The notes: generated by a model not told the origin, from the letters alone. A stretch of 20,000 nt of DNA from an uncultured virus (IMG/VR IMGVR_UViG_3300042867_001762) (IMGVR_UViG_3300042867_001762), one strand, 5' to 3'. Positions 1 through 15,260 are shown, counted from the first letter of the stretch. Numbers and translations are program-made.

Positions 1-69
1 CTCTGTTAGTATAGATATAGCTTCTTCGCTGGATCTTGCATAAGACAGCGCGACTTTGTCAAGTTTCAT
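1..69 (-). CDS. N-terminus of a hypothetical protein, truncated by the left window edge (MKLDKVALSYARSSEEAISILTE...)
   Basis: ATG at 69-67 preceded by GGAG (minus strand ATGGAGTTGTC-ATG). The frame is open to position 1. Confidence 0.45.
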   Translation of the reverse strand, partial: MKLDKVALSYARSSEEAISILTE

Positions 70-325
70 GACAACTCCATACAGCGGCATACCCGGCTTT
101 AGAGCCGGCGCGGGTCAACTAGCAGCTGTCTAATACTTAGTACAGCTGTAATACCGGCATCAAGAGAGGTTTTAGCTCCCGGTGGGTGGTGGCGGTTCCC
201 TTGGTATCTTTTGCCCATTATTCTTCAGACGGGTAAACGCTGCAAAGCGGTTGTCTGCCGGCAATAGGCCAGCCGCTCTAGGCACAAGAAAAAGAGAGAA
301 GAAGCAAACAGCGGGGCAACCGGGA

Positions 326-692
326 CAGGATCAGGGCACACCGTCTTTAGGACTGGAGCGAGTCTAGAAAAAAGAAAATGCTAACAGGATCAGGCGAGTA
401 TGTTTTTAGGACCGCGTGAAGTTGACAAAAAGACAAAGGGCGACAGGATCAAAAGAATCTGTTTTTAGGACCGGCGCGTTTCACATAGAAACAAGTATAT
501 AGACACACACAGGTCAAACCGATACAGGATCACAGATCCCCGTCTTTAGGACGGAGCAAGGGCAGAGGATTGCAGGCAATCGGCAAACCCCTACAGGATC
601 AGCAACACCCGTCTTTAGGACCGGAACGCTGCAATCCTCTGCCTGACAGAGGGGCAACTGTATCAGGATCAGAAATCGCTGTTTTTAGGACC
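326..692. repeat. Gene-free tandem cluster of six motif copies
   Basis: Start-to-start distances are 59,59,81,69,70 bp. The intervening DNA is unique, A-rich, and has no RBS-supported ORF. Confidence 0.9.
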
Positions 693-801
693 GGAGCACA
701 CAACGCGCGCGCGAATAGATCGCCCGCCCCCGGTTGTCCCGTTGGCAGGTGTGTTGCAGGTTGTAGGTACCGGGGAGAGTCGCCCCTCCCCGGTAGTGGC
801 T

Positions 802-984
802 TCAATCAAGCCAAAACAAGCCTTTTTCTAACCAGCTACAGGCAGCATGCATGGCCCGTGCCCTGTCCGCTTCGAGCGGCGCAAAGCGGGCACATTGAAA
901 GGCCATCGCAATACACTCCGTCCACGTAGGCTCGACGTCAGGACGGCTAGGAGGAAGTTCCAAAAAGCGCAGCATTATTGCCAC
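802..984 (-). CDS. Possible small hypothetical protein (60 aa)
   Basis: Same strand as the array genes and downstream of paralogue 1. The RBS is weak and no motif is recognised. Confidence 0.25.
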   Translation of the reverse strand: MAIMLRFLELPPSRPDVEPTWTECIAMAFQCARFAPLEADRARAMHAACSWLEKGLFWLD

Positions 985-1053
985 CTGTGTAGGGGTAAGC
1001 TGTCATTCTAACAGGAAAGGGAGCCGGGTTATCCCGGCCCCCACCTGCCTGCC

Positions 1054-1482
1054 TCACTTCAGCTTGGCGACAGCTTCAGCGAGACGGTCAGCCAGCCGGA
1101 GAACCTCGGCACGGCTAGCCTCGGTACCAGCGGTCCCGGTACCATCCACCTTGACAGAGAGCTTATCAGCGTTCTCCCGGAGAAACGCCACTCCCTTGTC
1201 GGTCATGATGAGGTCCAGCGCAATCCCCACAAAGTGGGGAGCGTAGACCGTGACAGGAAAGCGAGCGGACACACCGTAGATGCTGATAGCACCCTTCTCG
1301 CTGGCCTTGGCGGTGTAACCACGCGCCTCGCCCTTAGTCTTGGTAGCAGCATCGGCACGGGCCTTCTCTGCTGCCAGCGCAGCCTCGGCAGCCTTGAGAC
1401 GCTCCATGAGAGCTGCCACATCCGGGCTGACAGAGGTGACGGTGTTGTTGGCGACGGGGGTTCCGACCTTGATGAGCGACAT
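1054..1482 (-). CDS. Uncharacterised protein, paralogue 1 of 3 (coiled-coil + KASEKGAISIYGVSARFPVTVY motif), 142 aa
   Basis: ATG at 1482 after GGGAGAG. The MSLIK start and body align with 2455-2898 and 5646-6158. Confidence 0.9.
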   Translation of the reverse strand: MSLIKVGTPVANNTVTSVSPDVAALMERLKAAEAALAAEKARADAATKTKGEARGYTAKASEKGAISIYGVSARFPVTVYAPHFVGIALDLIMTDKGVAFLRENADKLSVKVDGTGTAGTEASRAEVLRLADRLAEAVAKLK

Positions 1483-2063
1483 GATGCTCTCCCTGTATTT
1501 AGGCTCCACGAGATACCCGACCACCGGGTATAACGCTTCACCTTTGCGGCTATGTAGTGGGCCGCCGTTCTGCTCTACAGGATCGGCGGACCCCGACTTT
1601 AGGACCGCCGCCCCCTGTCAAGAAAAACTGCTTTCTAGCAGGTACTATCTAGCAACCTACCAAGCATCCCTATCAACGCGCGCGAGACAATAGCTATCCA
1701 GCAAGCCCGGGCGGCCTGCTAAAGATTATAAAGTTATCTCCCAGCTCTCTACCGTTAGGGAAAGCCAGAATCAGTAAAAGCACAACAGGATCACACAACA
1801 CCGTCTTTAGGACTGAAGCCGCAATCCTAATAACAGATAGAAAAGATCCTGCAAACATTGCATCAGCATTACAAAGCCACTAGGCACACCGCACCCGTCC
1901 CCGGTTGTCCCGTTGACGCAGGTTACAGGATCGGCGGACTCCGTCTTTAGGACCGCCGGCCCCTGTCAGCTATCATAAAACGCAAAAACAAAACGGATCT
2001 TTTGTCCACATAACTAATCCACCGGATACACCTCTCCCCGCCCCCGACTATAGCGTTGACGCG

Positions 2064-2166
2064 TAACAGGATCGGGAGAAGCTGTTTTTAGGACCGGCAC
2101 AATAAAAAGGGGCATAAACTTTGCAGGCAATCCCGGTCCTAAAAACGGGCTTTCCCGATCCTGTTA
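2064..2166. repeat. Back-to-back inverted pair of the motif
   Basis: TAACAGGATCGGGAGAAGCTGTTTTTAGGACCGG (2064-2097) and CCGGTCCTAAAAACGGGCTTTCCCGATCCTGTTA (2133-2166) are near reverse complements, 35 bp apart. Confidence 0.9.
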
Positions 2167-2454
2167 TTGTTCCCCGGTTTTTTCTTGCAATCGACGCACC
2201 TATCCCGCCCCCGGTTGTCCCGTTGACCCGTCTGTCAGGATCGTCGGCGTATGTTTTTAGGACCGACGACCGGACTGCCCCGCGCCGGGCAATAAAAAAA
2301 GGAATAGTTCGCCCGCCCCGGTTTGTCACCAGAGTACGTCCTACAGGATCAGGCGAGTATGTTTTTAGGGCCGGTGGCGAACCCGGCGGGTCCGGCCGGG
2401 CGCCGGTCGCCGGAAAAGGGGCAGGCGGGTCGCCCCGCCCACCCCCGGCCCGCC

Positions 2455-2898
2455 TCACTTCAGGCGGGCAACCGCACCGGCCAGCCGGTCTGCGAGGCGC
2501 AGCACTTCCGCCCGGCTCGCCTCCGTCCCGGCCTGCCCGGTGCCGTCCACCTTGACAGACAACTTATCCGCGTTTTCACGCAGGAAGTTGACCCCCTTAT
2601 CCGTCATGATAAGGTCAAGGCACACCCCGACAAAGTGCGGGGCATACAGCGTGACAGGGAAGCGGGCGCTAACCCCGTAGATGGAAACCGCGCCCTTTTC
2701 CGATGCCTTCGCAGAATAACCCCGCGACTCCGCCTTGACCTTTTCAGCGGCGTCGGCGCGGGCCTTTTCCGTCGCGACCGCAGCTTCCGCCGCTGCGAGG
2801 CGGGCCATGAGCGCGGCAATGTCAGGAGACAGAGACGGCGCCGTGACGGGCGTGGCAACGGTGGCGGCGACAGGGGCGGGGAGCTTGATAAGCGACAT
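2455..2898 (-). CDS. Uncharacterised protein, paralogue 2 of 3, 147 aa
   Basis: ORF track. Strongly similar to 1054-1482 (identical LRENADKLSVKVDGTG and EASRAEVLRLADRLA). Confidence 0.9.
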   Translation of the reverse strand: MSLIKLPAPVAATVATPVTAPSLSPDIAALMARLAAAEAAVATEKARADAAEKVKAESRGYSAKASEKGAVSIYGVSARFPVTLYAPHFVGVCLDLIMTDKGVNFLRENADKLSVKVDGTGQAGTEASRAEVLRLADRLAGAVARLK

Positions 2899-3204
2899 GG
2901 CTTGTATCCTGCGTTCTAGCCTATCCGCAACCCCCGACCATCGGGCGCTGCGTCATCGGCGCTGCGTCGCGGCGTCGTCGCCGGGACACCCTACAAGATC
3001 AGGGGAAGCTGTTTTTAGGACCGGTGGCGACCGCGCTTTTCGGACAATAGGACGCCCGCCCCCGGACTCGCCGTTGGCCCTTGCAGATAAGTTTTGCAAT
3101 CTTTTAGCCCCGCATGGCACACCTCCCACGTATGCGGGACAAGATCAGAGGAGTATGTTTTTAGGCCCGGTCCGGAGTCAGGTGCCCCCCCGGCACCCCG
3201 TCCC

Positions 3205-3405
3205 CTAGCGGACGTCCGCCAGCGCCCGCAGCATCTCGGCGCGGCGGGTCAGGTACTCCCGCCCCGTCATTTCCAGATTGCAGCGTTCCGCCGCCCATCC
3301 CCGCAGCGCCCACGGGGCGCGGGCGAGCGCCGCTTCCATCCCGCCCTCGCGGGCGTTCACCGTCGCGTTGCCGTTGCCGTCAATCGCAATCTCCGTCACC
3401 TGCAT
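3205..3405 (-). CDS. Hypothetical protein, 66 aa
   Basis: GGAGG RBS 5 nt before ATG, directly downstream of the motif copy at 3429. Confidence 0.75.
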   Translation of the reverse strand: MQVTEIAIDGNGNATVNAREGGMEAALARAPWALRGWAAERCNLEMTGREYLTRRAEMLRALADVR

Positions 3406-3500
3406 GCAGCCTCCGTTGTGGCACCTATCAGGATCAAAAGTTTATGTTTTTAGGACCGGCCGGACTCGGGACCGGAGCTAGGCCCCGGTCCGTTGTCCGC

Positions 3501-3794
3501 TCACTCGTATCGCGGGCGCTGCCGGCTCTGCCATTCGGCGAGTGCTTCCGGGTCCCGCGTGCGGCGGACTTCTACATCGGTCCCGCCGAGAACCGAGAAG
3601 CGGTCATGACGCGGCGCGTAATGCGCTTCCTCGCGTTCCAGCCGCCGGGCAAACCGGCGCGCCCGGCGCGGGTTGTCAAAAGACCACGCCTTTTCTACAT
3701 TCGACCAGTCGAACCACCAGCCGCCTTCCTCATGCCCGCCAAAGTGGCGGGAGGTTGAAACGACTGCCACGAAAACCTGCTCGCTGCTGCGCAT
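3501..3794 (-). CDS. Hypothetical phage-type protein with FGGHEEGGWWFD motif, 97 aa
   Basis: GGAGGCGACG-ATG at 3794, downstream of motif 3813. It resembles YGGPEEGGWWY-type phage hypotheticals from memory (not searched). Confidence 0.8.
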   Translation of the reverse strand: MRSSEQVFVAVVSTSRHFGGHEEGGWWFDWSNVEKAWSFDNPRRARRFARRLEREEAHYAPRHDRFSVLGGTDVEVRRTRDPEALAEWQSRQRPRYE

Positions 3795-3878
3795 CGTCGC
3801 CTCCGTGTCTAACAAGATCAAAAGAATCTGTTTTTAGGACCGGCTCAGCAAAGAACCCCGCGCGTGCGGGGCCGGACC

Positions 3879-4172
3879 TCAGTCCGCGAGAAGCTGCGCC
3901 TCAAACTGGTAGGCCAGTGAGCTGCTTTGATAAGCGTAGCTGCCGACATAGCGGCGACTGACTTCCGCCTGTACCTGCGCCGCCGTCAACGGCGGGAACA
4001 CCTTGACGCCTCCGGTGTTGGCGCCCATCTCCCCCGACTTTTCAGTCAAGGCACCTAGGATGCCCCGGTCCCGGTCAACGAACACAACTTCGCCGGAAGG
4101 GCACTGCATAGCCACGATGCGTTGACCATGGGGACCATAAAGACGACCGGTGTTGAAGTGAACCTTGGACAT
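3879..4172 (-). CDS. Hypothetical protein (FNTGRLYGPHGQRI), 97 aa
   Basis: AGGAGG RBS, downstream of motif 4215. Confidence 0.8.
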   Translation of the reverse strand: MSKVHFNTGRLYGPHGQRIVAMQCPSGEVVFVDRDRGILGALTEKSGEMGANTGGVKVFPPLTAAQVQAEVSRRYVGSYAYQSSSLAYQFEAQLLAD

Positions 4173-4278
4173 AGCTGCCTCCTGCTAGTTGGTTTCGTTC
4201 CGGCTTCTGCTATACAGGATCAGAGGAGTATGTTTTTAGGACCGGTCGCGAGCCAGGTGGGGCTGGCGCCCCAGCCGG

Positions 4279-4410
4279 TCACTCGTCGTCGCGGTCCCGG
4301 CGGACTCGCCCCCGGCACGCCCGGCGTTTCGATTCCGCCTTGCGGTCGCGCATGACCCCGCCTTTACGGGTTAGGATCATCTGCAACAAGATTGCGTTTC
4401 GCGGCTTCAT
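4279..4410 (-). CDS. Small basic protein MKPRNAILLQMILTRKGGVMRDRKAESKRRACRGRVRRDRDDE (43 aa; below the ORF-track cutoff)
   Basis: Translated by hand. GAGGG RBS, followed by a GC hairpin. Overlaps the end of 4364-4555. Confidence 0.55.
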   Translation of the reverse strand: MKPRNAILLQMILTRKGGVMRDRKAESKRRACRGRVRRDRDDE

Positions 4411-4555
4411 AGGCTACCCTCGCACGGCGGCGCGTGTCCGCCAGAAAATAGTTTTTCTCGTATGAATGCACCGCATGACCGGACACCGGCGCATAGCCGG
4501 GCGGATAATGCGGCGGGGCGAACAACGCCCGGAGCGTTTGTCGGAGCCGTTCCAT
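4364..4555 (-). CDS. Hypothetical protein, 63 aa
   Basis: GGGAGG RBS immediately downstream of motif 4572. Confidence 0.55.
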   Translation of the reverse strand: MERLRQTLRALFAPPHYPPGYAPVSGHAVHSYEKNYFLADTRRRARVAYEAAKRNLVADDPNP

Positions 4556-4634
4556 CGTGCCTCCCGGCTATCAAGATCGGCCCGGTATGCTTTTAGGACC
4601 GGGAAGGAAAGGGGCAGGTGTCCGCCCCGATCCC

Positions 4635-4817
4635 CTAGTTGTGAGCGTAGCCGTGGTGAGGTGCGATACCCGCCCACACCAGTTCGGCTAGATAGCGGTT
4701 GTTGAATACGAGCACCCCGCCGGGGAGTCCGCGCACTGCCCAGTGCCCGATCTCGCCGGGCAGGAACTCCCCGGCATCAACGTGTTCCTGATCAATGCAA
4801 AAGAAAAGCTCTTTCAT
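4635..4817 (-). CDS. Hypothetical protein, 60 aa
   Basis: AGGAGG RBS. Second gene of the unit headed by motif 5052. Confidence 0.7.
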   Translation of the reverse strand: MKELFFCIDQEHVDAGEFLPGEIGHWAVRGLPGGVLVFNNRYLAELVWAGIAPHHGYAHN

Positions 4818-4835
4818 GCGCAGTCCTCCTACCCG

Positions 4836-5030
4836 CTAATCGCGGTGGTCGCGGGTCTCGTCCGCTTCGAGCATCATCGCACGGTGCTCCCATGCACGTT
4901 GCAGGGCGGCAACATAGACGGCAGTCGACGGTGCATGCTCGCTTTCCCGGCGCATCCGGGCATAGTCCGGGGGTGCACAGTCACACGCAGGGCGTTGCTT
5001 ACAAGTAGGGCAAGAAAACTTGCTTTTCAT
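4836..5030 (-). CDS. Small Cys-rich protein (CPTC...CDC), possible zinc binding, 64 aa
   Basis: GGAGG RBS, downstream of motif 5052. Confidence 0.7.
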   Translation of the reverse strand: MKSKFSCPTCKQRPACDCAPPDYARMRRESEHAPSTAVYVAALQRAWEHRAMMLEADETRDHRD

Positions 5031-5131
5031 ACCGGCCTCCGTTGTGCTTATCAGGATCAGGTAAGTATGTCTTTAGGACCGGGGCCGGAAGGAAAGGCCG
5101 GGGGATTTCTCCCCCGACCCGCCCCGGACGG

Positions 5132-5524
5132 TCACACCTTGCGGATAGCATGACCAGTCAGGACCAGCCCGATGCCGTCGGGCACCTGCACCCCGGAGAA
5201 CAGGGCGGCAGCTTCCGTCCCCCGGATGGTAAGGCCGAACCGGGTGCCCCGGCGGTCGACAAGGCCACGGCACCGGAGACAGGACAGCGCCCGCTCCACG
5301 TTGGAGACCGGGATGCCTTGCGTTTCCGCAATCTCAGCGGCAGTAGCAGCCCGACGCCCGCGCCGGGTTGCCTTGCGGCGGGCAATATCTGCGAGGATGG
5401 CCGTTTGACGCGGCCCCGGCGTGGTGGTATTCCCATAGTTAAGGCTTGACAGCTTGCCGACAAGCACGTCAGCAGCGGCACGGGAAAGAGCAAGGGTGAG
5501 GGAACGAGCAGACTGCTTGCGCAT
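5132..5524 (-). CDS. Winged helix-turn-helix DNA-binding protein, 130 aa
   Basis: TAAEIAETQGIPVSNVERALSCLRCRGLVDRRGTRFGLT matches the wHTH pattern. GGAG RBS, downstream of motif 5571. Confidence 0.75.
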   Translation of the reverse strand: MRKQSARSLTLALSRAAADVLVGKLSSLNYGNTTTPGPRQTAILADIARRKATRRGRRAATAAEIAETQGIPVSNVERALSCLRCRGLVDRRGTRFGLTIRGTEAAALFSGVQVPDGIGLVLTGHAIRKV

Positions 5525-5645
5525 CGCGTCTCCATTCGCGGCGTTTGTTTCGTCGTCGCCGCTTGTCTAACAGGATCAAAAGAATCTGTTTTTAGGACCG
5601 GCGGGGAAGGAAAGGGCCGGGCGAACCCGGCCCCCTTCCTACCGT

Positions 5646-6158
5646 TCACGCCTTGCGGGTGACCCGATCAAGCTCATCGGCAAGGCTGCGCACTGCCGAT
5701 TCCGAAGCACCCGTGCCCGCCTGGCCCGTGCCGTCGACCTTGACCGAAAGCTTCGCCGCATTCTCCCGGAGGAACGCCGACGCCTTGCCGGTCATAACCA
5801 GATCACGGATGATTCCCACGAGGTGGGGAGCGTAGAGCGTCACCGGGAACTTGGTAGAGACGCCGTAGATCGAGATAGCGCCCTTCTCCGACGCCTTCAT
5901 GCTGTATCCACGGCTACCGCCACTCGCCGCACGGGCAGCCTCGGCCGCATCGGCCCGGGCCTTCTCTGTAGCGAGCCCCGCCTCGGCCGCCGCAAGCCTC
6001 GCCATAAGAGCCGCAATGTCCGGGCTCGTGCTCGTCGCAGCGACCGGCGCCGGGAGAGGCATCGGCGCCATAGGGGCGGGCGCCGTCACACGGGGAGCGG
6101 GGAGAGCAAGGGTGTTGCCAGAGTTGCCGGTGTTGGAACCAAACTTGATGAGCGACAT
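5646..6158 (-). CDS. Uncharacterised protein, paralogue 3 of 3, with Pro/Ala-rich N-terminal extension, 170 aa
   Basis: MSLIK start at 6158, and KASEKGAISIYGVSTKFPVTLYAPH. Confidence 0.9.
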   Translation of the reverse strand: MSLIKFGSNTGNSGNTLALPAPRVTAPAPMAPMPLPAPVAATSTSPDIAALMARLAAAEAGLATEKARADAAEAARAASGGSRGYSMKASEKGAISIYGVSTKFPVTLYAPHLVGIIRDLVMTGKASAFLRENAAKLSVKVDGTGQAGTGASESAVRSLADELDRVTRKA

Positions 6159-6340
6159 TGTGCTTTCCCTTTTGTTTCTAGGGCCTAGCGTACCGCCGAC
6201 CACCGGCGCTACGTTTAACCCGTTATGTGCGGCGCATCGTATCGTTTCGTCGCCGCCGTTCTGTCTAACAGGATCAAAAGAATCTGTTTTTAGGACCGGT
6301 AGGCTCGGGTCCGGGGCTACGCGCCCCGGCCCGTCACCCG

Positions 6341-6607
6341 CTAGTCTTCGAGCGCCCGGAGAATCGCCACCGCGTTAGCGGGACGGTTGGCGCGGACCAC
6401 CGCCGCAACCCAGTGGTTGCGACCCGTCTCGCGGCCGGCGAGGTGGCACACCTGCTTGAACCAACCCACCCGGCCCCGGTTCTCCACCGGGTAAGCGACC
6501 GAGCGGTCGCCCCGGGCGATGCCCGCCGCACTGGCGAGCACGTCCAACCCGTCGTGCTGCGCGGCGAGAACGCGAACGTTGCGAGCTTCCTTCTTTGTCA
6601 GCTTCAT
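6341..6607 (-). CDS. Hypothetical protein, 88 aa
   Basis: GGAGGCCACG-ATG at 6607, downstream of motif 6626. Confidence 0.75.
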   Translation of the reverse strand: MKLTKKEARNVRVLAAQHDGLDVLASAAGIARGDRSVAYPVENRGRVGWFKQVCHLAGRETGRNHWVAAVVRANRPANAVAILRALED

Positions 6608-6702
6608 CGTGGCCTCCATGTCTAACAGGATCAAAAGAATCTGTTTTTAGGACCGGGGAGGAGAGGGGCGGAGCCGGGTGAACCCGGCCCCCGCCCGGAC
6701 GG

Positions 6703-7011
6703 TCATGCCGTCTCGGTAAGGTCAAGCTCCGAGACGAGCGCTTCGGTATCCCCGTCGCCCATGACAATCCCGTACCGGGTGCCGGCGGGCAGGCGCGTCA
6801 CCCGCAGGAAGTCGGTTGACGGGACCTCATAGTCCGCCACTTCCGGGTGGAGGTCGATGAGACGAGCCGCAAAGGCGTCGTCGTCGGCCGCCTCCACGGC
6901 CGCGACCAGTACCGGGTCACGGCGCAGGCGGGCAAGAGCGCCGGCCTCCACCCCCTCGATTTCGAGGGTGCCGTAGTCGGTAGAGAGAATAATGCCGATG
7001 ACGTTGGTCAT
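6703..7011 (-). CDS. Acidic hypothetical protein, 102 aa
   Basis: GAGGT RBS before ATG 7011, downstream of motif 7067. Confidence 0.75.
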   Translation of the reverse strand: MTNVIGIILSTDYGTLEIEGVEAGALARLRRDPVLVAAVEAADDDAFAARLIDLHPEVADYEVPSTDFLRVTRLPAGTRYGIVMGDGDTEALVSELDLTETA

Positions 7012-7117
7012 GCTAACCTCGGGCAGGGCGGGCCGGCAGGAGCGCCGGGAACCGCTGGACACCTATCAGGATCAAAAAGTTATGTTTTTAGGACCGATGA
7101 CGCCCGCAAAAAAAGAC

Positions 7118-7145
7118 AAAAAAACCCCGGCTGATTAGGCCGGGG
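7118..7145 (-). terminator. Rho-independent terminator
   Basis: CCCCGGC/GCCGGGG stem followed on the minus strand by a T7 run, just after the stop of 7168-7578. Confidence 0.8.
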
Positions 7146-7167
7146 CCGGGCGAGGCCCGCTGTGAGG

Positions 7168-7578
7168 CTAGCTCTCACTGTGACAAACACATCCCCACCC
7201 TGCGCAGGAGTGAGTATCTTCGAGCACGTCGTCCGGCAGGAACGCCCCGCGCCCGTCAAGAGCTTCCTCGACTTCATGACGGAACAGCATGCAGGCGGCC
7301 ACGTCCTCCAACGTGTAGACGTATCCGACTTGCGGGTTGCGGCCCGGCTGAAAGCGCACGGTCCCCGTGCGGAAGGGGCGCACGCCTTCAGACTCCATCC
7401 CGCCGAAAGCGGCATGGATATTTGGGAGAGCGGCCCAGAGCCGCTCGAATCCCGCACGGTCCCCACGAAACAGGAGCTTGCCGTTAACGTAGAACTCCAA
7501 CGCCCGGCCCACGTCCGACGGGAAATCGATGCCAGCGAGACGAATGTCAAGGGCGAGAGAGCGCTTTTGCGAAGCCAT
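7168..7578 (-). CDS. Hypothetical protein, 136 aa, C-terminal HSCxxxxCxCH
   Basis: GGAGG RBS, downstream of motif 7623. Confidence 0.8.
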   Translation of the reverse strand: MASQKRSLALDIRLAGIDFPSDVGRALEFYVNGKLLFRGDRAGFERLWAALPNIHAAFGGMESEGVRPFRTGTVRFQPGRNPQVGYVYTLEDVAACMLFRHEVEEALDGRGAFLPDDVLEDTHSCAGWGCVCHSES

Positions 7579-7673
7579 GCTATCCTCCGTTGTGCGGCCC
7601 GTGCCGCCGTTCCGATGTCTAACAGGATCAGAAATATCTGTTTTTAGGACCGCTGCCAGGTTCGAGACCTGGC

Positions 7674-7701
7674 AAAAGAAAAGCCCCGGCGGGGCCGGGG
7701 C
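7674..7701 (-). terminator. Rho-independent terminator
   Basis: GCCCCGGC/GCCGGGGC stem plus TTTTCTTTT on the minus strand. Confidence 0.8.
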
Positions 7702-7722
7702 GGTGGAAGGGTGGGCGGCGAA

Positions 7723-7980
7723 CTAAAATAGTTCGTCGCCGATGATAGCGAAAGCTTCCGACGCGGAAAGACAACCGGCGTCCCACTGCTCGCGGGCCTC
7801 AGCGGGCAGGCGGGCGAAAAGGCCCGCCTCCGTCATGAGCTTGGCAAGGCCGGCATCGACGCCGCACCAAGCGGCGCGGTCAGTTCCGTAGCCCGCGCGG
7901 CGCGCGGCAGCCGCATCGCGGTCGGCGCGCCGGAGCGCGACGATGTTGGATCGGGCAGTGAGGCTGTCGTTGTTGTTCAT
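7723..7980 (-). CDS. Hypothetical protein, 85 aa, apparently leaderless
   Basis: The ATG lies 6 nt after the motif (GATCTTG-ATAAGC-ATG) with no RBS. A terminator follows the stop. Confidence 0.65.
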   Translation of the reverse strand: MNNNDSLTARSNIVALRRADRDAAAARRAGYGTDRAAWCGVDAGLAKLMTEAGLFARLPAEAREQWDAGCLSASEAFAIIGDELF

Positions 7981-8059
7981 GCTTATCAAGATCAAAAGAT
8001 AATGTTTTTAGGACCGGGCAGGTTCGGGACCGGGGATGCGACTCCCCGGGCCGGGACGG

Positions 8060-8224
8060 CTAATCCTCCGTCTCGATCTCCCGGCGCTCGGAACGCCGGA
8101 CGGCCCGCGCCGTCTTGCGCTTGACGGCCGCCTTGCCCCCGCCGCCACGGGGACAACACCCCGGGCACAGGCAAAGCGCGTGCCCGAAGTTTCCAGCGAT
8201 GCGAATCCGAACCGATTGAGCCAT
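8060..8224 (-). CDS. Small Cys-rich basic protein MAQSVRIRIAGNFGHALCLCPGCCPRGGGGKAAVKRKTARAVRRSERREIETED (54 aa; not in the ORF track)
   Basis: Translated by hand. GGAGGT RBS. Fills the unit between motifs 8241 and 7987. Confidence 0.7.
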   Translation of the reverse strand: MAQSVRIRIAGNFGHALCLCPGCCPRGGGGKAAVKRKTARAVRRSERREIETED

Positions 8225-8312
8225 GCTGACCTCCGCCTATTAGGATCAGAAAAGAATGTTTTTAGGACCGGTCCGGCTCGGCACCGGGGACAAGCCCCGG
8301 CCCGATTCCTTA

Positions 8313-8525
8313 TCAGTAGCCCGCTTGCCGGAGCGCCCGCAGCGCATCGGAGTGGCGCAGGAGCCTTTGAATACTTGTCATGTCCATCTCGGCTATCGCC
8401 GCCCGGGCGCGGTGGGCCTCCCATCCGACCGTGGCCAGCGTACCGGGGAGCCCCATCGGAGCCATGGCCGTCAGCTTGCTGCCGTCGGGAAAGGTCACCG
8501 TCATCTTGCCAGCCTTGTCTTTCAT
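8313..8525 (-). CDS. Hypothetical protein, 70 aa
   Basis: GGAGG RBS, downstream of motif 8544. Confidence 0.75.
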   Translation of the reverse strand: MKDKAGKMTVTFPDGSKLTAMAPMGLPGTLATVGWEAHRARAAIAEMDMTSIQRLLRHSDALRALRQAGY

Positions 8526-8601
8526 CGCTGCCTCCGTGACTAACAGGATCAGGAAAGAATGTTTTTAGGACCGGCGAGAAAGGGGGCACCGGCCCCGGAG
8601 A

Positions 8602-8700
8602 CTAACCCGCCATCCCGTAGAACAAGACGGGATAGACGAACACGAGAACAAACATACCGGCAAGGAAGAAAAACGCATCGGCAGCATCGCGGCGGGTCAT
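8602..8700 (-). CDS. Single-pass membrane peptide MTRRDAADAFFFLAGMFVLVFVYPVLFYGMAG (32 aa)
   Basis: GAGGTG RBS, downstream of motif 8718. One hydrophobic segment. Confidence 0.65.
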   Translation of the reverse strand: MTRRDAADAFFFLAGMFVLVFVYPVLFYGMAG

Positions 8701-8782
8701 ACTCACCTCTTGCCTATCAAGATCAAAAAAGAATGTTTTTAGGACCGGCGGAAGGCGGGCGGGGGATTGCTCCCCCGGTCCG

Positions 8783-8929
8783 CTAGTCGCGGCGCTTTTC
8801 CCTTCGGCGGGCATCCCACGAGCGGGGACGACCCTTTGTCGGGCGGGGCGACTCACCCGCCGGGCGGCCCCGGCCCATGCGGGCGGGGCGGTTATCGGTT
8901 TCGTCGTCAGGGATGTTCCACGGCTTCAC
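8783..8929 (-). CDS. Possible 48-aa basic peptide with two GRP (AT-hook-like) motifs
   Basis: GTG start overlaps the TGA of 8926-9240 (GTGA coupling). Hand translation MKPWNIPDDETDNRPARMGRGRPAGESPRPTKGRPRSWDARRREKRRD. Confidence 0.4.
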   Translation of the reverse strand: MKPWNIPDDETDNRPARMGRGRPAGESPRPTKGRPRSWDARRREKRRD

Positions 8930-9240
8930 AGCCCCACCCCCGGCTTGCGGACCGTGACCGTGGCATCGGCCACCGGCAGCCCGGCAGCTTCGCAGTCCCG
9001 GCGGATAACCGCCGGAATCTCGCGGCGGTTGAAGCCACGGCGTACCATCGCCGTTTCCAACTCTCCGGCGAGGTTGGCCAGTGCCTCCACCACCGGCCCG
9101 GCGTCGCCGCCGATGGCGAGCAAGGCAAAGGCGAGATCCGTGACCTGATCTGCACGGGCAGCCAGGCCCGCGTCCCCGGCCCGGCGGGCCATGGCATTTA
9201 CGATTCCAATGCGAACAGAGAGGGTCGTTTCGGTACGCAT
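8926..9240 (-). CDS. Hypothetical protein, 104 aa
   Basis: AGGAGG RBS, downstream of motif 9279. Confidence 0.8.
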   Translation of the reverse strand: MRTETTLSVRIGIVNAMARRAGDAGLAARADQVTDLAFALLAIGGDAGPVVEALANLAGELETAMVRRGFNRREIPAVIRRDCEAAGLPVADATVTVRKPGVGL

Positions 9241-9343
9241 GTTGCCTCCTGCGGCGTGTTGTTTGCCGCTCTGCCTATCAGGATCAAAACTTTCTGTTTT
9301 TAGGACCGGCCGGGGAAAGAGCCCGGCCGGCGCCGGGCATCTC

Positions 9344-9811
9344 TCACCCCTCCCACGGGGCGCGGGCGTTCAAGCACGCTTCCGGGGTGAGGTCCGGCTC
9401 CCACCGGGCCAGCATCCCCTCGATTGCGGCGAGGGGAACCCCGTGAGAGTTACGGGCGGCGCACTCCGCCGCGTCCCGCCCCCACGGCGTGCGCGGCTCG
9501 ACGAACTGCACCCTGTATCCGTGGAAGGTCGCGGCGCGGACATATTCCCGCGCCTCCCATCCTTGAGTCATAGTGTTGTCCACGATGACGTGGGTAACAC
9601 CGGCTTCCATCGCCTCCGCCGTGCGGCGGAGGTTGGCCGCGTGGTGGGCCCCGAGCTTCGACCCGTCGAAGCGGTACTCGCCATCGACCATGAAAAAATC
9701 ATCTGTGGAAAACACGGGAGCCGTCTCGACGCCCGGGACGTTGGCGAGCACCTTGGCAAGGGTGCTCTTGCCGCTACCGGGGACGCCACGCATAATCGTC
9801 AGGGTCTTCAT
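9344..9811 (-). CDS. P-loop kinase, AAA_33 / N4BP2-like (polynucleotide-kinase-type fold), 155 aa
   Basis: Walker A GVPGSGKS, STDDFF, VIVDNT and RNSHGVP motifs. GGAGG RBS. Confidence 0.85.
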   Translation of the reverse strand: MKTLTIMRGVPGSGKSTLAKVLANVPGVETAPVFSTDDFFMVDGEYRFDGSKLGAHHAANLRRTAEAMEAGVTHVIVDNTMTQGWEAREYVRAATFHGYRVQFVEPRTPWGRDAAECAARNSHGVPLAAIEGMLARWEPDLTPEACLNARAPWEG

Positions 9812-9925
9812 CGTATCCTCCGTGCCGGTTTGTTTCGTTCCGGCTTCTGTCTAACAGGATCAAAAGATAATGTTTTTAGGACGGGTGACGAGCCGGGCAG
9901 CCCGGTCGATTGACCGGGGAGCCGC

Positions 9926-10258
9926 TCACGCGGGACGGCTCAAGCCCCGGCAGCCAACCGGCTGACCATCGGGGCCGCGCACAAGCGCCCCGGGGGAAAG
10001 GACGTCGGTACGGCCCCGCACCGCCGGGTGTCCGGCGACGAGGCCGGAGACAACCCACGTCACGCCGGGGGCCGGCGCGGGGAGGCCGACGACCTCCCCG
10101 AAAGAGGTTTCGAAAATCTCCACGCCGTCGACGACGGCGGCCACGGCCGTCTTTGTCGCCACGCGGGCGACGGTCCCGTCGGCGGGCAGGACGAGCGCGG
10201 GCGCGCCCGCTTGGTCGACGACGGTGATGGTGTGGGGGGTCAAGTTCACAAACGCCAT
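9926..10258 (-). CDS. Hypothetical protein with N-terminal NLTPH motif, 110 aa
   Basis: GAGG RBS, downstream of motif 10296. The NLTPH...VAR...LPAP...VVS pattern is recalled from phage hypotheticals (not searched). Confidence 0.8.
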   Translation of the reverse strand: MAFVNLTPHTITVVDQAGAPALVLPADGTVARVATKTAVAAVVDGVEIFETSFGEVVGLPAPAPGVTWVVSGLVAGHPAVRGRTDVLSPGALVRGPDGQPVGCRGLSRPA

Positions 10259-10398
10259 GCGAGCCTCGGGTGTTGCGGGTTGTTCTGACGCCTAACAGGA
10301 TCAAGAGAGAATGTCTTTAGGACCGGCCGGGGCCGGGAAAGAAACGCAGAAAACGGCAAGGCCCCGCCTTGCTGGCGGGGCGGGGCGATGGGCGGGAG

Positions 10399-10608
10399 TT
10401 AGTTCCCGCCGCAGTGATAGCAATCGTGCCCTTGCCGGGAGCTGCACTCCCCGCTAAGCGGGCCATTGTCGGTCCCGCAGTAGTAGCAGATGTCCCGGCC
10501 CGGGGTGGGCCGCAGGCGCCACTCGGGAGTGGTGGCGGTGGGGGTCTCGGCCTTGTCGGCGGCCGAAGCCGCGCTCAGGCGCTCAAACATGCAGTCATAG
10601 CTAGACAT
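10399..10608 (-). CDS. Zinc-ribbon-like protein (CYYC...CYHC), 69 aa
   Basis: GGAGG RBS before ATG 10608. Two CxxC pairs. Confidence 0.75.
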   Translation of the reverse strand: MSSYDCMFERLSAASAADKAETPTATTPEWRLRPTPGRDICYYCGTDNGPLSGECSSRQGHDCYHCGGN

Positions 10609-10746
10609 ACTGCCTCCGGGTGTTGCGGGTTGTTCTGACATCTAACAGGATCAAAAAGAAATGTTTTTAGGACCGGCCGGGGCCGGGAAAGAAAAGCGGA
10701 AAAGCGGAAACCCCGCCGGGTTAGGGCGGGGTCGGGGGGGCGGGGG

Positions 10747-11109
10747 TCACCAGTAAACCGGGTGCCCCCAGACGGAGTAGGAAACTCCGTCTTCGTCTTG
10801 GAGGACCTCGTCCCCCAGGGGATAGTAAGCGGGGTCGTTGACCACCTCCTCCGCGCGGGCGGGGGTGATGCGCCCCCCCTCGACGAGGGGGGCGAGGATT
10901 GCCCCCTTTCGGGCGGCGGCGTCGCCGCTGGCCGCCCATGCGGCGGCGGCGGCTCCGTAGGCGGCTGCTTCGCCGCCGTCACCGTAGGCGGCGGCGGTGG
11001 TGGCGGCGAGGTCGGCGTCTTCAGCCGCTTGCGCGGCGAAGGAGAGGAGGGCGTGGGCGCGCCCGATGGCGGCGTTGACGGCGGCGGTGGTGGCGCGGGT
11101 GGTCTTCAT
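10747..11109 (-). CDS. Ala-rich hypothetical protein, 120 aa
   Basis: GAGG RBS before ATG 11109, downstream of the leader hairpin and motif 11165. Confidence 0.75.
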   Translation of the reverse strand: MKTTRATTAAVNAAIGRAHALLSFAAQAAEDADLAATTAAAYGDGGEAAAYGAAAAAWAASGDAAARKGAILAPLVEGGRITPARAEEVVNDPAYYPLGDEVLQDEDGVSYSVWGHPVYW

Positions 11110-11213
11110 GGTTGCCTCACAGACAGGGGGAAGGGGTTGACGGACTGGACCCTGTCTCGACATACAAGATCAAAAAGAAATGTTTTTAGGACGGGCCAGG
11201 CTCGAGACCGGGC

Positions 11214-11239
11214 AAAAGAAAACCCCGGCAGGGCCGGGG
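11214..11239 (-). terminator. Rho-independent terminator
   Basis: CCCCGGC/GCCGGGG stem plus TTTTCTTTT. Related hairpins at ~11620-11641, 12195-12223, 12293-12318 and 12686-12712. Confidence 0.8.
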
Positions 11240-11261
11240 CGAGAGAAGCGGCGGGCCGGGT

Positions 11262-11522
11262 TCACCGGAGCGGGCGGGCCGCGCCACCCATACGGGCGCG
11301 CATCGCCCGGATGCGCTCCGCTACCAACTCCGCTTCCGTCGGCGGGGGCGGAGGGGCGTCAAGCACCCCCACCACCACCGTACCGTCGTCGAGCTGCCCC
11401 CGATGAATGCGGGCCGCCTCAGCGTCACCGGCCTCGCTGTAGGCGGCCCGCAGACGGGCGGCGATGACCGCCGTGCGGACGGCGGTGGCATCAACGATGG
11501 TAGCAGTGCGGCGGATGGTCAC
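11262..11522 (-). CDS. Hypothetical protein, 86 aa (GTG start)
   Basis: GGAGGCCGCC-GTG, downstream of motif 11559. Confidence 0.7.
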   Translation of the reverse strand: MTIRRTATIVDATAVRTAVIAARLRAAYSEAGDAEAARIHRGQLDDGTVVVGVLDAPPPPPTEAELVAERIRAMRARMGGAARPLR

Positions 11523-11654
11523 GGCGGCCTCCAAACGGGACTGGATTGTCCCGCGCATCAGGATCAAAAGATAATGTCTTTAGGACCGGCCGGGGCCGGG
11601 AAAGAAACCCGGAAAAGCGAAAGCCCCGGCAGGGCCGGGGCGATTCACTACGGG

Positions 11655-12089
11655 TTAGTAGTTGTCGTCGTCGTCGTTATCATAGAACGATATCGACGCG
11701 GACTCTTTCGTCTGATAGAAAGAGACCTCGACTGAATAATACCCGTTGCTATTGCCTTGCCAGCGCAGGGTGACGTAGCCCTTCCCCGTGGCGAAGCGGT
11801 AGAACGTCCAACCGCTTGTTCCGAGCGAGTGGCCGTCCTCGTCGATGTCGTCGACAATCTCGCCCGCGCACTCCGCCATGACGAGCGGGGAGTTAACAAG
11901 GTCGCACAGGTCGCCGTCGACCTGCGTGAGGCCAACATACTCGCAGCAGCTGCGCGAGTGGTGCATCAACCACTCGCTGCCGTCCGCGAACGTGAATCGG
12001 ACGGCGTCCCCGCCGTCTTTGTCCTTACAGAGTCCAACGGACTTGGCAGTCATGCCGACGATGGGGAACGTGTCATTGAAAGCGGTCAT
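11655..12089 (-). CDS. Hypothetical phage-type protein with CCE, WTFY and SNGYYS motifs, 144 aa
   Basis: GAGG RBS before ATG 12089. The motif set is recalled from a widespread phage hypothetical family (not searched). Confidence 0.85.
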   Translation of the reverse strand: MTAFNDTFPIVGMTAKSVGLCKDKDGGDAVRFTFADGSEWLMHHSRSCCEYVGLTQVDGDLCDLVNSPLVMAECAGEIVDDIDEDGHSLGTSGWTFYRFATGKGYVTLRWQGNSNGYYSVEVSFYQTKESASISFYDNDDDDNY

Positions 12090-12345
12090 GACGGCCTCAC
12101 AGACAGGGGGAAGGGGTTGATGGACTGATCCCTGTCTCGACATACAGGATCAAAAGATAATGTCTTTAGGATTTCGCCTGGTTCGAGACCGGGCAAAAGA
12201 AAAGCCCCGGCCCGTGCCGGGGCTGGCGCCGGGGACGCCCCGCCCTAGACCTTGACCGTGACATAGGCGTGCGACGACGGCGGACAGAAAATAAAAAAAC
12301 CCCGGCGCGTGGCCGGGGTCGGAAGGGTGAGAGGGAAGGCCGGGG

Positions 12346-12579
12346 TCATTCCCCGGCGACGAGACTCTCGCAAAGCCCCGGGCGCCAGTCGATGGAATCC
12401 GCCCCGATGGCGGAGTCGAGCCCTTGGTTTGCGAGTTCCAGCGCGGCCTCCGTAACCGCCAACGCGGCGGCCGCCGCCGGGCAGGACGGTGACGCGGCGT
12501 GAGCGGCGCGGACGGCATCGAGGGCGGCGGCGAGGGCGTTGACGGCGAGGGCGGCGGTGGTGACGGCGGCGGTGGTCAT
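12346..12579 (-). CDS. Ala-rich hypothetical protein, 77 aa
   Basis: GAGGT RBS, downstream of the leader hairpin and motif 12636. Confidence 0.7.
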   Translation of the reverse strand: MTTAAVTTAALAVNALAAALDAVRAAHAASPSCPAAAAALAVTEAALELANQGLDSAIGADSIDWRPGLCESLVAGE

Positions 12580-12738
12580 GACTTACCTCACAGACAGGGG
12601 GAAGGGGTTGATGGACTGATCCCTGTCTCACGCGTCAGGATCAAAAGATAATGTTTTTAGGACCGGCCCGGCTCGAAACCCGGTGAAAGAAAAGCCCCGG
12701 GCTAGCCGGGGCAGACAGGGCAGGGTCGGCCCCGGCCA

Positions 12739-13149
12739 TCAGAACTCGACGTCATCGGGAATCGTCTGCCACATCTCAGTCCCATCAGGCATGACATTAA
12801 GGAACCATGGGCGGGCATCAACCCGGTCGGCGAAGGGGACGCCCTCGACGGCGTCAATGTCCCAACGGCGTGCGGCTCGTTCCGCCGCGTCGTATCCGCC
12901 GTCATAGGCGTTCACGAGAAGGGCGGCGGTCTCCGTCGCCGGGCGGCGGCTTTCAATGGCGGTGGCGGGCCGGACTGCCACGCGCCGCAAGGCGGCGACG
13001 GCCGCCGCGCCGGGGCGCCCGCCGTCATAGGCGGCAAACGCCTCCACTACCGCCTTGCGATATTCTTCTTGAGCCATGATGGCCAGCGCCAGCGCGGTCT
13101 TGGTTACGGTAGCAACGTAGGCGGCGCGGGCTGTGATGGTGGTGGTCAT
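12739..13149 (-). CDS. Ala-rich hypothetical protein, 136 aa; first gene of the array
   Basis: GAGGT RBS, downstream of the leader hairpin and motif 13206. Confidence 0.75.
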   Translation of the reverse strand: MTTTITARAAYVATVTKTALALAIMAQEEYRKAVVEAFAAYDGGRPGAAAVAALRRVAVRPATAIESRRPATETAALLVNAYDGGYDAAERAARRWDIDAVEGVPFADRVDARPWFLNVMPDGTEMWQTIPDDVEF

Positions 13150-13400
13150 GACTTACCTCACAGACAGGGGGAAGGGGTTGACGGACGGGTCCCTGTCTCA
13201 CGCGTCAGGATCAGGAAAGAATGTCTTTAGGACCGAAAGGAATGGAAAGTAATAGGCAAGATTTGTGCCGCTTTTATTACGGGCGGCTGCCTGGCCGTTT
13301 ACAGGAAAGCAACCCCTGGGCGGGGGTTGGCGGGTTATAGGGGCGGAGGGGTAGCGTGGCACGCGGATTGCACGCTAGGAAAATTTGCAAATTTCAGGGG

Positions 13401-13696: not shown

Positions 13697-14225
13697 GATT
13701 ATCGATAGGTTATCTATTGAGGGGACGCCTCCTTGTGTGCCACGGACTCCTTCTGGTATATTCTCTAGTGTTTTCTCTATATAGCGGGGGCGCTTTGAGT
13801 GCAGAAGCGTGGGTGTATTCCTTGTGTTTTTCTTATAGGGCGGGGGCGGATTAGAACCTTGATGCTTTTATTATAGCGGGCGGGTGGATCCGGTTGCGGG
13901 TTGTTTTTGTTGGTACTGGGCGGGGGCGGCTTCCGGATGCGGTGGGGGTTATTTTAGGGGGTTTCTGTTGGTAACGCGGTGCGTTGCGGCAGGCGGTTTT
14001 TTGGCGGTGGGATGCGGCTTTGCGGTAGTTTACTGGGGCGGTGATTGTGGTTGGTGGTGTGGTGTAGTGAAAAGTAGGATTCGTGGTTTAGTAGAGTGGT
14101 CAAAGAAAACTGTGGATAAATGGGAGGGGGCCCGGGTGAGGAGGGGGCCTTTTGTGGGCGGGAGTTGCGTTTTATTCCTGTCGGTCTATTTTTATAGGAG
14201 GCTTTGCTGGAGACTTGGAGGATTT

Positions 14226-15260
14226 ATGTTTGCTTTATTTCGGATGGCCGGGGATGAGGACGAAGAGCTGCGTGCGCTACTGGGCGAGTACGGGGTAACC
14301 GGCGATGTGCCTGCTGGTGAGGGCGCATATGGCCGGGTTTACTTTGGTGTGGCGGAAGGTCGACCGGTGGCGATCAAGATCGAGGGGCGGGAGAGTGGTT
14401 CTGCCGAGTATGCTGTGCTTGATCGACTACGGACGATGCGTGCCGGTGCTCCGGGTGCTATAAAGCGTCATGTGCCGGTGGTGTATCGAGTAGGCTGCGG
14501 CGGGGCTTTCTGTTATTATGTTATGGAAATTCTACGTCCTTTGGATCGTGGGATCGCGCGGGACTTAGTAGGTACAGATTGGAGCGCTGACGTGGAGTCG
14601 GGGGTGAAAGGCTTGCGCTTCCGGCTGGACGCGGACGTGAGCGGCATAGCGGACGTGCAGCATGCGGTTCTTGTGGGCGGGAGCAGCGGGGAGAAGCTGC
14701 TGGACGCGGGGTTAGTGGCAGGAGCGTTTGCGGAGTGGTTTGGGCGTAACGGCAGGGCGGCTGCGGCTGTCTTCGGCGGTGATAGGGGCGGTTTAAATTC
14801 TTTTCGTACTGATCTAGAGAGGGCGATTACTGGCGTCCTGGTTTCGCTGGGCGGGGAATTTGGCCGTGGCGGGCGGGCGAGTGTTGGCGACATTGCATCT
14901 CTGCTGGGCGGGCGGGTACGGTCTGCACTGAGTGGCCGGGCACGAGTTGCAGCTCGTTTGCTAGAGGGCAAATACCCAGAGCTCGTTTTTGCGATAGTGC
15001 GAGCAGGCTGGCTGCCAAAGTTCCACCCTGGGCGGGCAGGGGATGATGTGGTAGGGCCGTACGAGACTCTGAGCCGGAGTACGGAGGCGCTGGATTCGGA
15101 CAGTGACCGTCGGTCGCTGCGTGAGACCCTGGACTGGATGCGAGAGGGCGGGGTGTTGAGCGGCGATATTCATGAAGATAATATCATGGAACGGCCCGGG
15201 ACTGGCGAGTGGGTACTGATTGACTATGGCCTATACCGATTTATGAATGAAGACGAGTGA
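14226..15260 (+). CDS. Protein kinase-like (Ser/Thr kinase fold) protein, 344 aa
   Basis: GGAGG RBS before ATG 14226. Gly loop GEGAYGRVY, VAIK lysine, YYVME hinge, catalytic GDIHEDN and LIDYG. Confidence 0.85.
   Translation: MFALFRMAGDEDEELRALLGEYGVTGDVPAGEGAYGRVYFGVAEGRPVAIKIEGRESGSAEYAVLDRLRTMRAGAPGAIKRHVPVVYRVGCGGAFCYYVMEILRPLDRGIARDLVGTDWSADVESGVKGLRFRLDADVSGIADVQHAVLVGGSSGEKLLDAGLVAGAFAEWFGRNGRAAAAVFGGDRGGLNSFRTDLERAITGVLVSLGGEFGRGGRASVGDIASLLGGRVRSALSGRARVAARLLEGKYPELVFAIVRAGWLPKFHPGRAGDDVVGPYETLSRSTEALDSDSDRRSLRETLDWMREGGVLSGDIHEDNIMERPGTGEWVLIDYGLYRFMNEDE

Follow-up and report, generated by a model that had tools for sequence, protein, structure and literature searches.

Six perfect copies of a 28-nt two-box motif stand close together, with no gene among them, at positions 326-692 of the window, the whole 20,000-nt stretch of an uncultured virus genome that was analysed. 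Judging from sequence, we propose that this cluster is a functional stack of tandem promoters from which a 237-nt leader and then a 164-aa ORFan gene would be transcribed, a reading to which we give a probability of about 0.5. We are clearly more confident about the motif as such, which would very probably be a transcription-start signal (promoter) of early genes. The features discussed below are located in Table 1.

Table 1. Location of the motif copies and of the stretches around them (window coordinates; the strand is that on which the feature is read)
Feature	Position	Strand	Remarks
164-aa ORFan gene, 5' end	1..69	-	runs past the window (L020 12267-12761); relatively AT-rich
Non-coding leader, copy A to next start codon	70..325	-	237-nt leader; fold z-score -1.66, unremarkable
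Copy A	326..353	-	last in transcription direction; 0 mismatches
Copy B	385..412	-	0 mismatches; core is that of 2344
Copy C	444..471	-	28-mer identical to gene-associated copies 5571, 6269, 6626
Copy D	525..552	-	0 mismatches
Copy E	594..621	-	0 mismatches; bracketed by perfect 15-bp inverted repeat 561-575 / 629-643
Copy F	664..691	-	0 mismatches; first in transcription direction
Structured non-coding stretch	693..1053	-	361 nt; z-score -4.38; between preceding gene's terminator (1019-1042) and cluster
Promoter-dense stretch	1578..2371	-	same-strand copies 1578, 1786, 1926, 2067, 2236, 2344; five gene-less
25 further copies	2994..13233	-	64% GC island; 23 precede an ORF of at least 50 aa

The six-copy cluster and its surroundings

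The cluster was recovered by a pattern search on the + strand with CAGGATCA-N9-GTYTTTAGGAC. No copy shows a mismatch: each agrees with the pattern at 19/19 specified box positions, that is 114/114 over the six. On the + strand the copies start at 326, 385, 444, 525, 594 and 664, which confirms the intervals of 59, 59, 81, 69 and 70 bp given in the first-pass annotation. The functional strand is the minus strand of the window, on which the motif reads GTCCTAAARAC-N9-TGATCCTG; the core of copy A, for instance, is GGGCACACC on the + strand and GTCCTAAAGACGGTGTGCCCTGATCCTG in the minus-strand reading. The first-pass annotation had also described variable internal segments of 10 nt. Their sequences do differ between copies but their length is 9 nt, a pattern with N10 giving no match at all. 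The recurrence that it had reported for the core of 385 was found again at 2344, in a copy with one box mismatch; for the copy at 444, the full 28-mer is exact at three of the four positions that had been named (Table 1), while the fourth, 3813, carries one mismatch. Within the stack, copies F, C and B have AT-rich spacers and copies E, D and A GC-rich ones. Copy E with 24 nt of flank folds at -19.8 kcal/mol. A weak downstream flank of GGTTKSCC type (family D3) is common to 4/6 copies and suggests an old local duplication after which the boxes would have been retained.

The segments between the copies measure 31, 31, 53, 41 and 42 nt. They had been called unique, gene-free and A-rich; the first two attributes held, while A-richness is clear in only three of the five (+ strand). 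Comparison of these segments with other sequences, as had been proposed, gave no match in the phage collection, and in the phage's own genome no other match than the 15-bp inverted repeat that links two adjacent spacers. No credible gene was detected within the cluster and no ORF of at least 50 aa follows any of the six copies. The ORFs that overlap it mechanically (182-367 and 570-929 on the + strand, 599-805 on the minus strand) all fail the GC3 filter. The terminator scan found no gene-strand terminator-like site between the copies. Six starts within 338 bp were obtained in 6.2% of 20,000 uniform scatterings of 37 points over the same span (P = 0.06). The density of the cluster is thus only modestly unusual, and its notable features are the absent genes and the six perfect copies.

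An assembly artefact had been put forward as one way in which the cluster could be dismissed. Independent contigs reproduce parts of it with no difference: a contig from a river run spans 445-832, and contigs from a lake run of another study span 505-656 and 640-853. Positions 338-444 are covered, among the listed pieces, only by a run that is possibly the source sample. Contig joints at 444-476 fall on copy C, which is identical to four others, and are repeat-induced. As far as contigs can tell, the cluster is no assembly artefact.

Downstream of the stack, in the direction of transcription, the leader holds a degenerate copy reduced to box A about 30 nt before the ATG, and gave no Rfam or tRNA match. 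This box-A-like remnant is all that the 164-aa gene has of its own, with no good motif copy; its product had no match in Pfam, PHROGs or the Atlas. Two class-2 copies (see below), 87 nt apart, lie just downstream of this gene. On the upstream side, the 693-1053 stretch is much more stably folded than its shuffles (z-score in Table 1). It contains terminator-like sites at 1042-1019 and 984-969, with a perfect 12-bp hairpin included, and no Rfam family matched it; a structured RNA not yet described, or a series of stacked terminators, may account for it. Further upstream, four of the five gene-less copies of 1786-2371 have one box mismatch, and two inverted copies (1824-1851 and 2136-2163), which carry 1 and 3 mismatches, are each paired back to back with a normal one (1786-1851, 2067-2163). 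The cluster thus belongs to a junction of 3 kb, dense in promoters and poor in genes, that joins the island described below to the class-2 region.

Two side observations concern this junction. The inverted copies, if active, would fire antisense toward the paralogue gene 2455-2898. A river strain in run X7 is identical over 71-2186 and shows 45 differences over 2228-4000; this pattern suggests a putative boundary of a recombination mosaic near 2200.

Gene units, genome and relatives

Over the whole window, 39 matches to the motif were found at no more than 3 mismatches (37 on one strand, 2 inverted), compared to 0.01 expected from 200 shuffles. The gene-strand consensus is (C)GGTCCTAAARAC-N9-YGATCCTG, in which the boxes GGTCCTAAA and GATCCTG form a direct repeat of GRTCCT, 22 bp apart. 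GC3 periodicity and RBS/ATG analysis, with genes called by simple purpose-made scripts, assign the genes between 1 and 13.3 kb of the window to its minus strand. A start codon opening an ORF of at least 50 aa with high GC3 lies 6-110 nt past 24 of the 37 same-strand copies. Their leaders carry a Shine-Dalgarno sequence (GGAGG, then ATG) in 23/24 cases, the exception being copy 7987, where the ATG comes 6 nt past the motif. Copy 1578, in the promoter-dense stretch (Table 1), is the 24th of these and would drive gene 1054-1482. Behind two more copies the ORFs, 32 and 35 aa long, are doubtful, and the remaining 11/37, all within 326-2371, have no gene.

T-tailed terminator-like hairpins are also frequent in window 2400-13400 (20, against 10.6 ± 3.7 in shuffles), 17/20 of them being on the gene strand. 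These reduce to 12 distinct sites; a motif copy follows 10-11 of the sites at no more than about 130 nt, and 9 of them at no more than about 50 nt. A consensus scan for TTGACA/TATAAT sigma-70 sites before the genes found none. Since terminators, motif and RBS recur with each gene, every small ORFan gene appears as an autonomous terminator-motif-RBS-ORF unit. These units make up an island at 2400-13300 (genome 350.8-361.6 kb) with 64% GC against 51% for the genome, where about 25 small ORFan genes each have a motif copy and most have their own terminator. Among the options listed in the first-pass annotation, stacked promoters fit this arrangement best: read on the strand opposite to the one presented, the motif precedes RBS and ATG at 24/37 copies and follows terminator hairpins. 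The products of the window are almost all ORFans, except for an AAA_33/polynucleotide-kinase-like protein, a DUF7448 protein and a weak wHTH protein.

Three paralogues (1054-1482, 2455-2898 and 5646-6158) start with MSLIK and match no family. Their leaders are unusually long (95-110 nt) and have the words agaacggcggc and ccggtggtcgg in common; a fourth homologue is carried by the metagenome fragment L157, to which we return below.

The window is the reverse strand of 344,026-364,025 in a virus record of 371,675 bp, whose 127-bp end overlap indicates a circular assembly. The genome encodes a gpA-type terminase, portal, baseplate and tail proteins, DnaE, gyrase, RecA, Lon, a chaperonin and RIIA, and crude ORF calls place 397 of 476 ORFs on one strand. 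The source is an uncultured giant (jumbo) phage of freshwater. Its terminase reaches 25.7% identity with the best match in the GenBank phage collection, and near-identical DNA was found in lake and river metagenomes of 15 studies; of the runs listed for window 1-4000, none is an RNA run.

At the scale of this genome, strict patterns retrieve 67-68 gene-strand copies and a relaxed box B 74, with 2 on the other strand. All of them lie on one 144-kb arc, from 350.8 kb across the circular junction to 123 kb, and none was found in 123-350 kb, where the structural and many replication genes are. The 36 copies of class 1, all in the island, have an AT-rich spacer. The 38 copies of class 2 read GSCCTAAAGCCGG...CCCGATCCTG; their flank upstream is rich in G and their spacer in C, and wAGG-N-CGAACC is conserved downstream. 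In most of them GGAG and ATG follow within roughly 15-70 nt, as judged by eye. Just before the first motif copy of this early arc lies a region (13884-15260, + strand) with a 458-aa ORF of no family match, on the strand opposite to nearly all genes, where GC skew rises to 0.45 and AT skew is negative.

No clear late-promoter motif emerged from k-mer enrichment. By eye, CTATTAAT/CTATAAAAT-like words were seen in the gaps before several genes of 124-350 kb, for example before 175910, 205986, 207770, 208595, 235908 and 238615; they may represent a second promoter class.

The motif was also sought elsewhere. Bacteria and archaea, searched through a single genome for each of 185,579 species, gave no more than 32 singleton matches, and scans of viral and metagenome contigs returned 91 and 28 stretches, respectively. 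Outside related fragments these matches are chance singletons, and by these scans the full motif is phage-specific. Two viral fragments proved related, both from the class-2 region, and the metagenome scan gave one related fragment (1.26 kb). One relative is represented by a viral fragment of 36 kb (RIIA 86% identical), which has class-2 copies at four orthologous intergenic positions; over these four copies, 54/56 box positions are identical to those of our phage, against 134/240 of the other positions. The boxes thus appear to be under selection while their surroundings drift. Relatives found through the terminase, at 86-91% identity, are all short fragments. Viral contigs contained no relative of the two proteins flanking the cluster, and none covering the six copies came out of the flanking-protein, motif and metagenome searches.

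One fragment documents the movement of gene units. L157 is a 1264-bp metagenome fragment, about 77% identical, in which the order is: 3' end of the 6341-6607 homologue, motif, kinase gene, motif, novel small ORF, motif, homologue of 5646-6158. In the phage itself, 6341-6607 and 5646-6158 adjoin with one motif copy between them, the kinase cassette being 3 kb away. The insertion in L157 falls exactly at a motif copy, which argues, from this one case, that cassettes move at the motif.

Reading of the motif and proposed role of the cluster

The spacing of the two boxes is invariant in all copies, and two registers fit a promoter. In the first (P2), GGTCCT would be the -35 and GATCCT the -10 element, 16 bp apart, with a start 6-7 nt past box B. 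GGTCCT-N16-GATCCT has the spacing of the sigma-70 family, and past box B the C at +6 and the purine at +7 are conserved, as would suit a pyrimidine(-1)/purine(+1) start; this C-purine pair and the rigid distance between the boxes speak for P2. In the second (P1), box A (CCTAAAGC) would be the -10 element, with the start within the spacer and box B in every leader. It is favoured by the copy at genome 62540, where GGAG comes 2 nt after box B. Box A also resembles the -10 element of Caulobacter RpoD (GCtANAWC; PMC8144410), and class-2 copies show T..CAG upstream of box A. The boxes match no known sigma consensus, and either of them may be the -10 element.

The reader of the motif may be host RNA polymerase carrying a sigma factor of the host, or a factor supplied by the phage, sigma-like or of another kind. 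The phage encodes a divergent sigma-70-family protein of 262 aa (genome 177957-178745; L169 957-1742), which matches TIGR02937 with E = 3e-6, below the family cut-off, and has a zinc ribbon (CxxC...CxxC) inserted between its regions 2 and 4. Two proteins with sigma region 4 only are encoded as well. The search for a phage RNA polymerase with PF00940 was blank, but so were the control genomes, which makes it a weak test. The D-x-DGD motif is absent from all called ORFs, and PHROGs gave no RNA polymerase match among 31 large proteins. The gene of the 262-aa protein stands directly upstream of a 2698-aa ORF with no assigned function.

In the proposed stack, RNA polymerase would load at any of the six copies, and transcripts would cross the later copies and the leader into the 164-aa gene, starting at window 69, and onward. 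All six copies would fire, but at a spacing of 59 bp RNA polymerase footprints would overlap, so that six simultaneous open complexes are unlikely. Elsewhere in the window, the terminators directly upstream of motif copies create a need for re-initiation. A six-copy stack is probably an ordinary way of driving one unit hard.

We consider it unlikely, though worth weighing, that the cluster is instead debris of cassette turnover, a set of promoter signals left gene-less by deletions in a hyperplastic region, functionless and kept alike by gene conversion. Empty sites after cassette loss had been among the options of the first-pass annotation, and what stands of that proposal is that genes behave as motif-bounded cassettes, as seen from the kinase cassette and the novel ORF of L157. 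The adjacent 1786-2371 stretch, with its five gene-less copies, its two inverted copies and other repeat fragments, points the same way and the zone could be decaying; degraded PeSL elements have, moreover, been described near indels (PMC4122927). Recombination between two direct copies leaves one copy, however, not six. The intact boxes of all six copies also speak against decay, although gene conversion among copies could keep boxes perfect with no selection on the cluster. The inter-copy spacers resemble neither the leaders nor the terminators of any other cassette, and the differing cores exclude a recent duplication.

More doubtful than simple debris is a combined scheme in which the two-box element would be read by a phage-specific factor and would at the same time be the recombination joint of a promoter-borne cassette system in giant freshwater phages. 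The six-copy array would then be maintained as a dock for cassette circles, or as a zone where polymerase or factor is loaded for the switch from early to later expression.

The cluster might also be an array that loads or titrates a protein binding the GRTCCT boxes (sigma-like, the wHTH protein of 5132-5524 or a host factor) and serves timing, sequestration or the marking of replication or packaging. This we regard as improbable. In its favour, the repeat distance of the boxes, about two helical turns, is of the kind typical for proteins that bind in tandem, the cluster lies in the lowest-GC 500 bp of its part of the window (48.6%), and the full motif is phage-specific. Against it, the 59-81 bp spacings are not multiples of the helical repeat; the only near-match to a DnaA box in 1-2500, TTGTCCACA at 2002, is outside the cluster; no Rep- or ParB-type gene is adjacent; and GC skew carries no origin signal, being monotonic because nearly all genes are on one strand. 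Single sites before about 60 genes fit an expression signal better. The iteron- or parS-like loading array of the first-pass annotation accordingly found no support, its spacing being out of helical phase and the motif not being confined to the cluster.

Least probable of all, in our estimate, is that the motif acts in RNA, as a leader element common to the transcripts or a signal for processing, with short RNAs or a highly processed leader as the products of the cluster. If box A were the -10 element, box B (GAUCCUG) would be found at about +7 to +13 of every early mRNA, and its UGAUCC is complementary to the GGAUCA that we take to lie just 5' of the anti-Shine-Dalgarno sequence in 16S rRNA. 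Class-2 copies can form G-rich/C-rich hairpins with CCTAAAG in the loop, but there is no structure common to class-1 and class-2 copies. RNAalifold on 44 class-2 copies gave 0 consensus pairs, and swapped upstream flanks fold as well as native ones (-18.4 vs -17.5 kcal/mol, p = 0.46). On these two results, covariation of the class-2 hairpins was rejected: there is no copy-specific covariation, and the hairpins reflect generic G-rich/C-rich complementarity. Terminators directly upstream of the copies favour re-initiation over processing. A source of short RNAs, as had been suggested, is further disfavoured by the lack of terminators between the cluster copies and of any Rfam or tRNA match.

Giant uncultured phages are known almost solely from assemblies, and the timing of their genes is largely obscure. 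The motif offers a testable candidate for an early-gene signal, with 74 copies, two rigid boxes and conservation in a relative, which would delimit a 144-kb early arc. It also presents small ORFan genes as independent terminator-promoter-RBS cassettes able to move between relatives. If the factor that reads it is encoded by the phage, a new promoter-specificity system would be at hand; if it is a host sigma, the motif would be a clue to the host.

Comparison with known systems

Several repeat systems were considered and set aside. The six-copy stretch has a 28-nt unit and unique spacers of roughly 30-50 nt in common with a CRISPR array, and had been described as CRISPR-like in spacing, a label that turned out to be misleading. 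The 9-nt core differs among all six copies, which have only the boxes in common; the spacers vary from 31 to 53 nt; and the unit has 33 further copies in the window and 74 in the genome, most of those in the window being placed like promoters, singly before dozens of genes. No Cas family was found in Pfam and PHROGs scans of the window ORFs and, elsewhere, of proteins of at least 250 aa up to about 297 kb and 31 large proteins. An iteron origin was rejected: the distances between repeats (59-81 bp) do not fit a period of about 10.5, the neighbouring genes include no Rep gene, and no DnaA-box match falls in the cluster. An integron attC array was likewise rejected: the motif is no inverted repeat, it lies 5' of each gene, and no integrase family appeared in the scans.

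The stoperators of cluster A mycobacteriophages, temperate phages, are 13-bp repressor sites (L5 gp71) that block elongation. They resemble the motif as short asymmetric intergenic sites, present in dozens per genome and in one orientation relative to transcription. Here, in contrast, the motif follows terminators and precedes the RBS, by a distance that is short and fixed, as suits a site of initiation, and neither integrase nor repressor was found among the scanned proteins, which cover part of the genome.

Phage T7 has tandem strong early promoters for host sigma-70, A1, A2 and A3, at its leading end, and late promoters read by a phage single-subunit polymerase; phages of T7/SP6 type use a phage-specific conserved promoter word that recurs many times. 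As in those phages, several promoters of one orientation would here stand no more than a few hundred bp ahead of the first genes, in a genome of uniform orientation, and a phage-wide promoter word recurs; A1-A3 would be a functional analogue of the proposed stack. No single-subunit polymerase was found here, and the motif is bipartite with a free 9-nt core.

Closer are the PeSL (promoter-early stem-loop) elements of T4-like phages (Arbiol et al. 2010; Comeau et al. 2014, PMC4122927). In each, a composite unit runs from a stem-loop or terminator through a promoter to the Shine-Dalgarno sequence and the start codon; such units recur in the gaps between small ORFan genes, in an early region that is hyperplastic; and in both, copies mark the joints of insertions or replacements between relatives (here in one case, L157). 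PeSL promoters are near-consensus sigma-70 promoters (TTGACA-N17-TATAAT or close variants), unlike the pair GGTCCTAAA and GATCCTG seen here. The present phage is a jumbo phage unrelated to the T4-like ones, its terminase having at most 25.7% identity to the GenBank phages searched, and a gene-less stack of six copies is not described in the available part of PMC4122927. Three of the four PeSL features are found in our phage, the exception being the sigma-70-like promoter, and the composite terminator-promoter element of PeSL type is the closest described kind.
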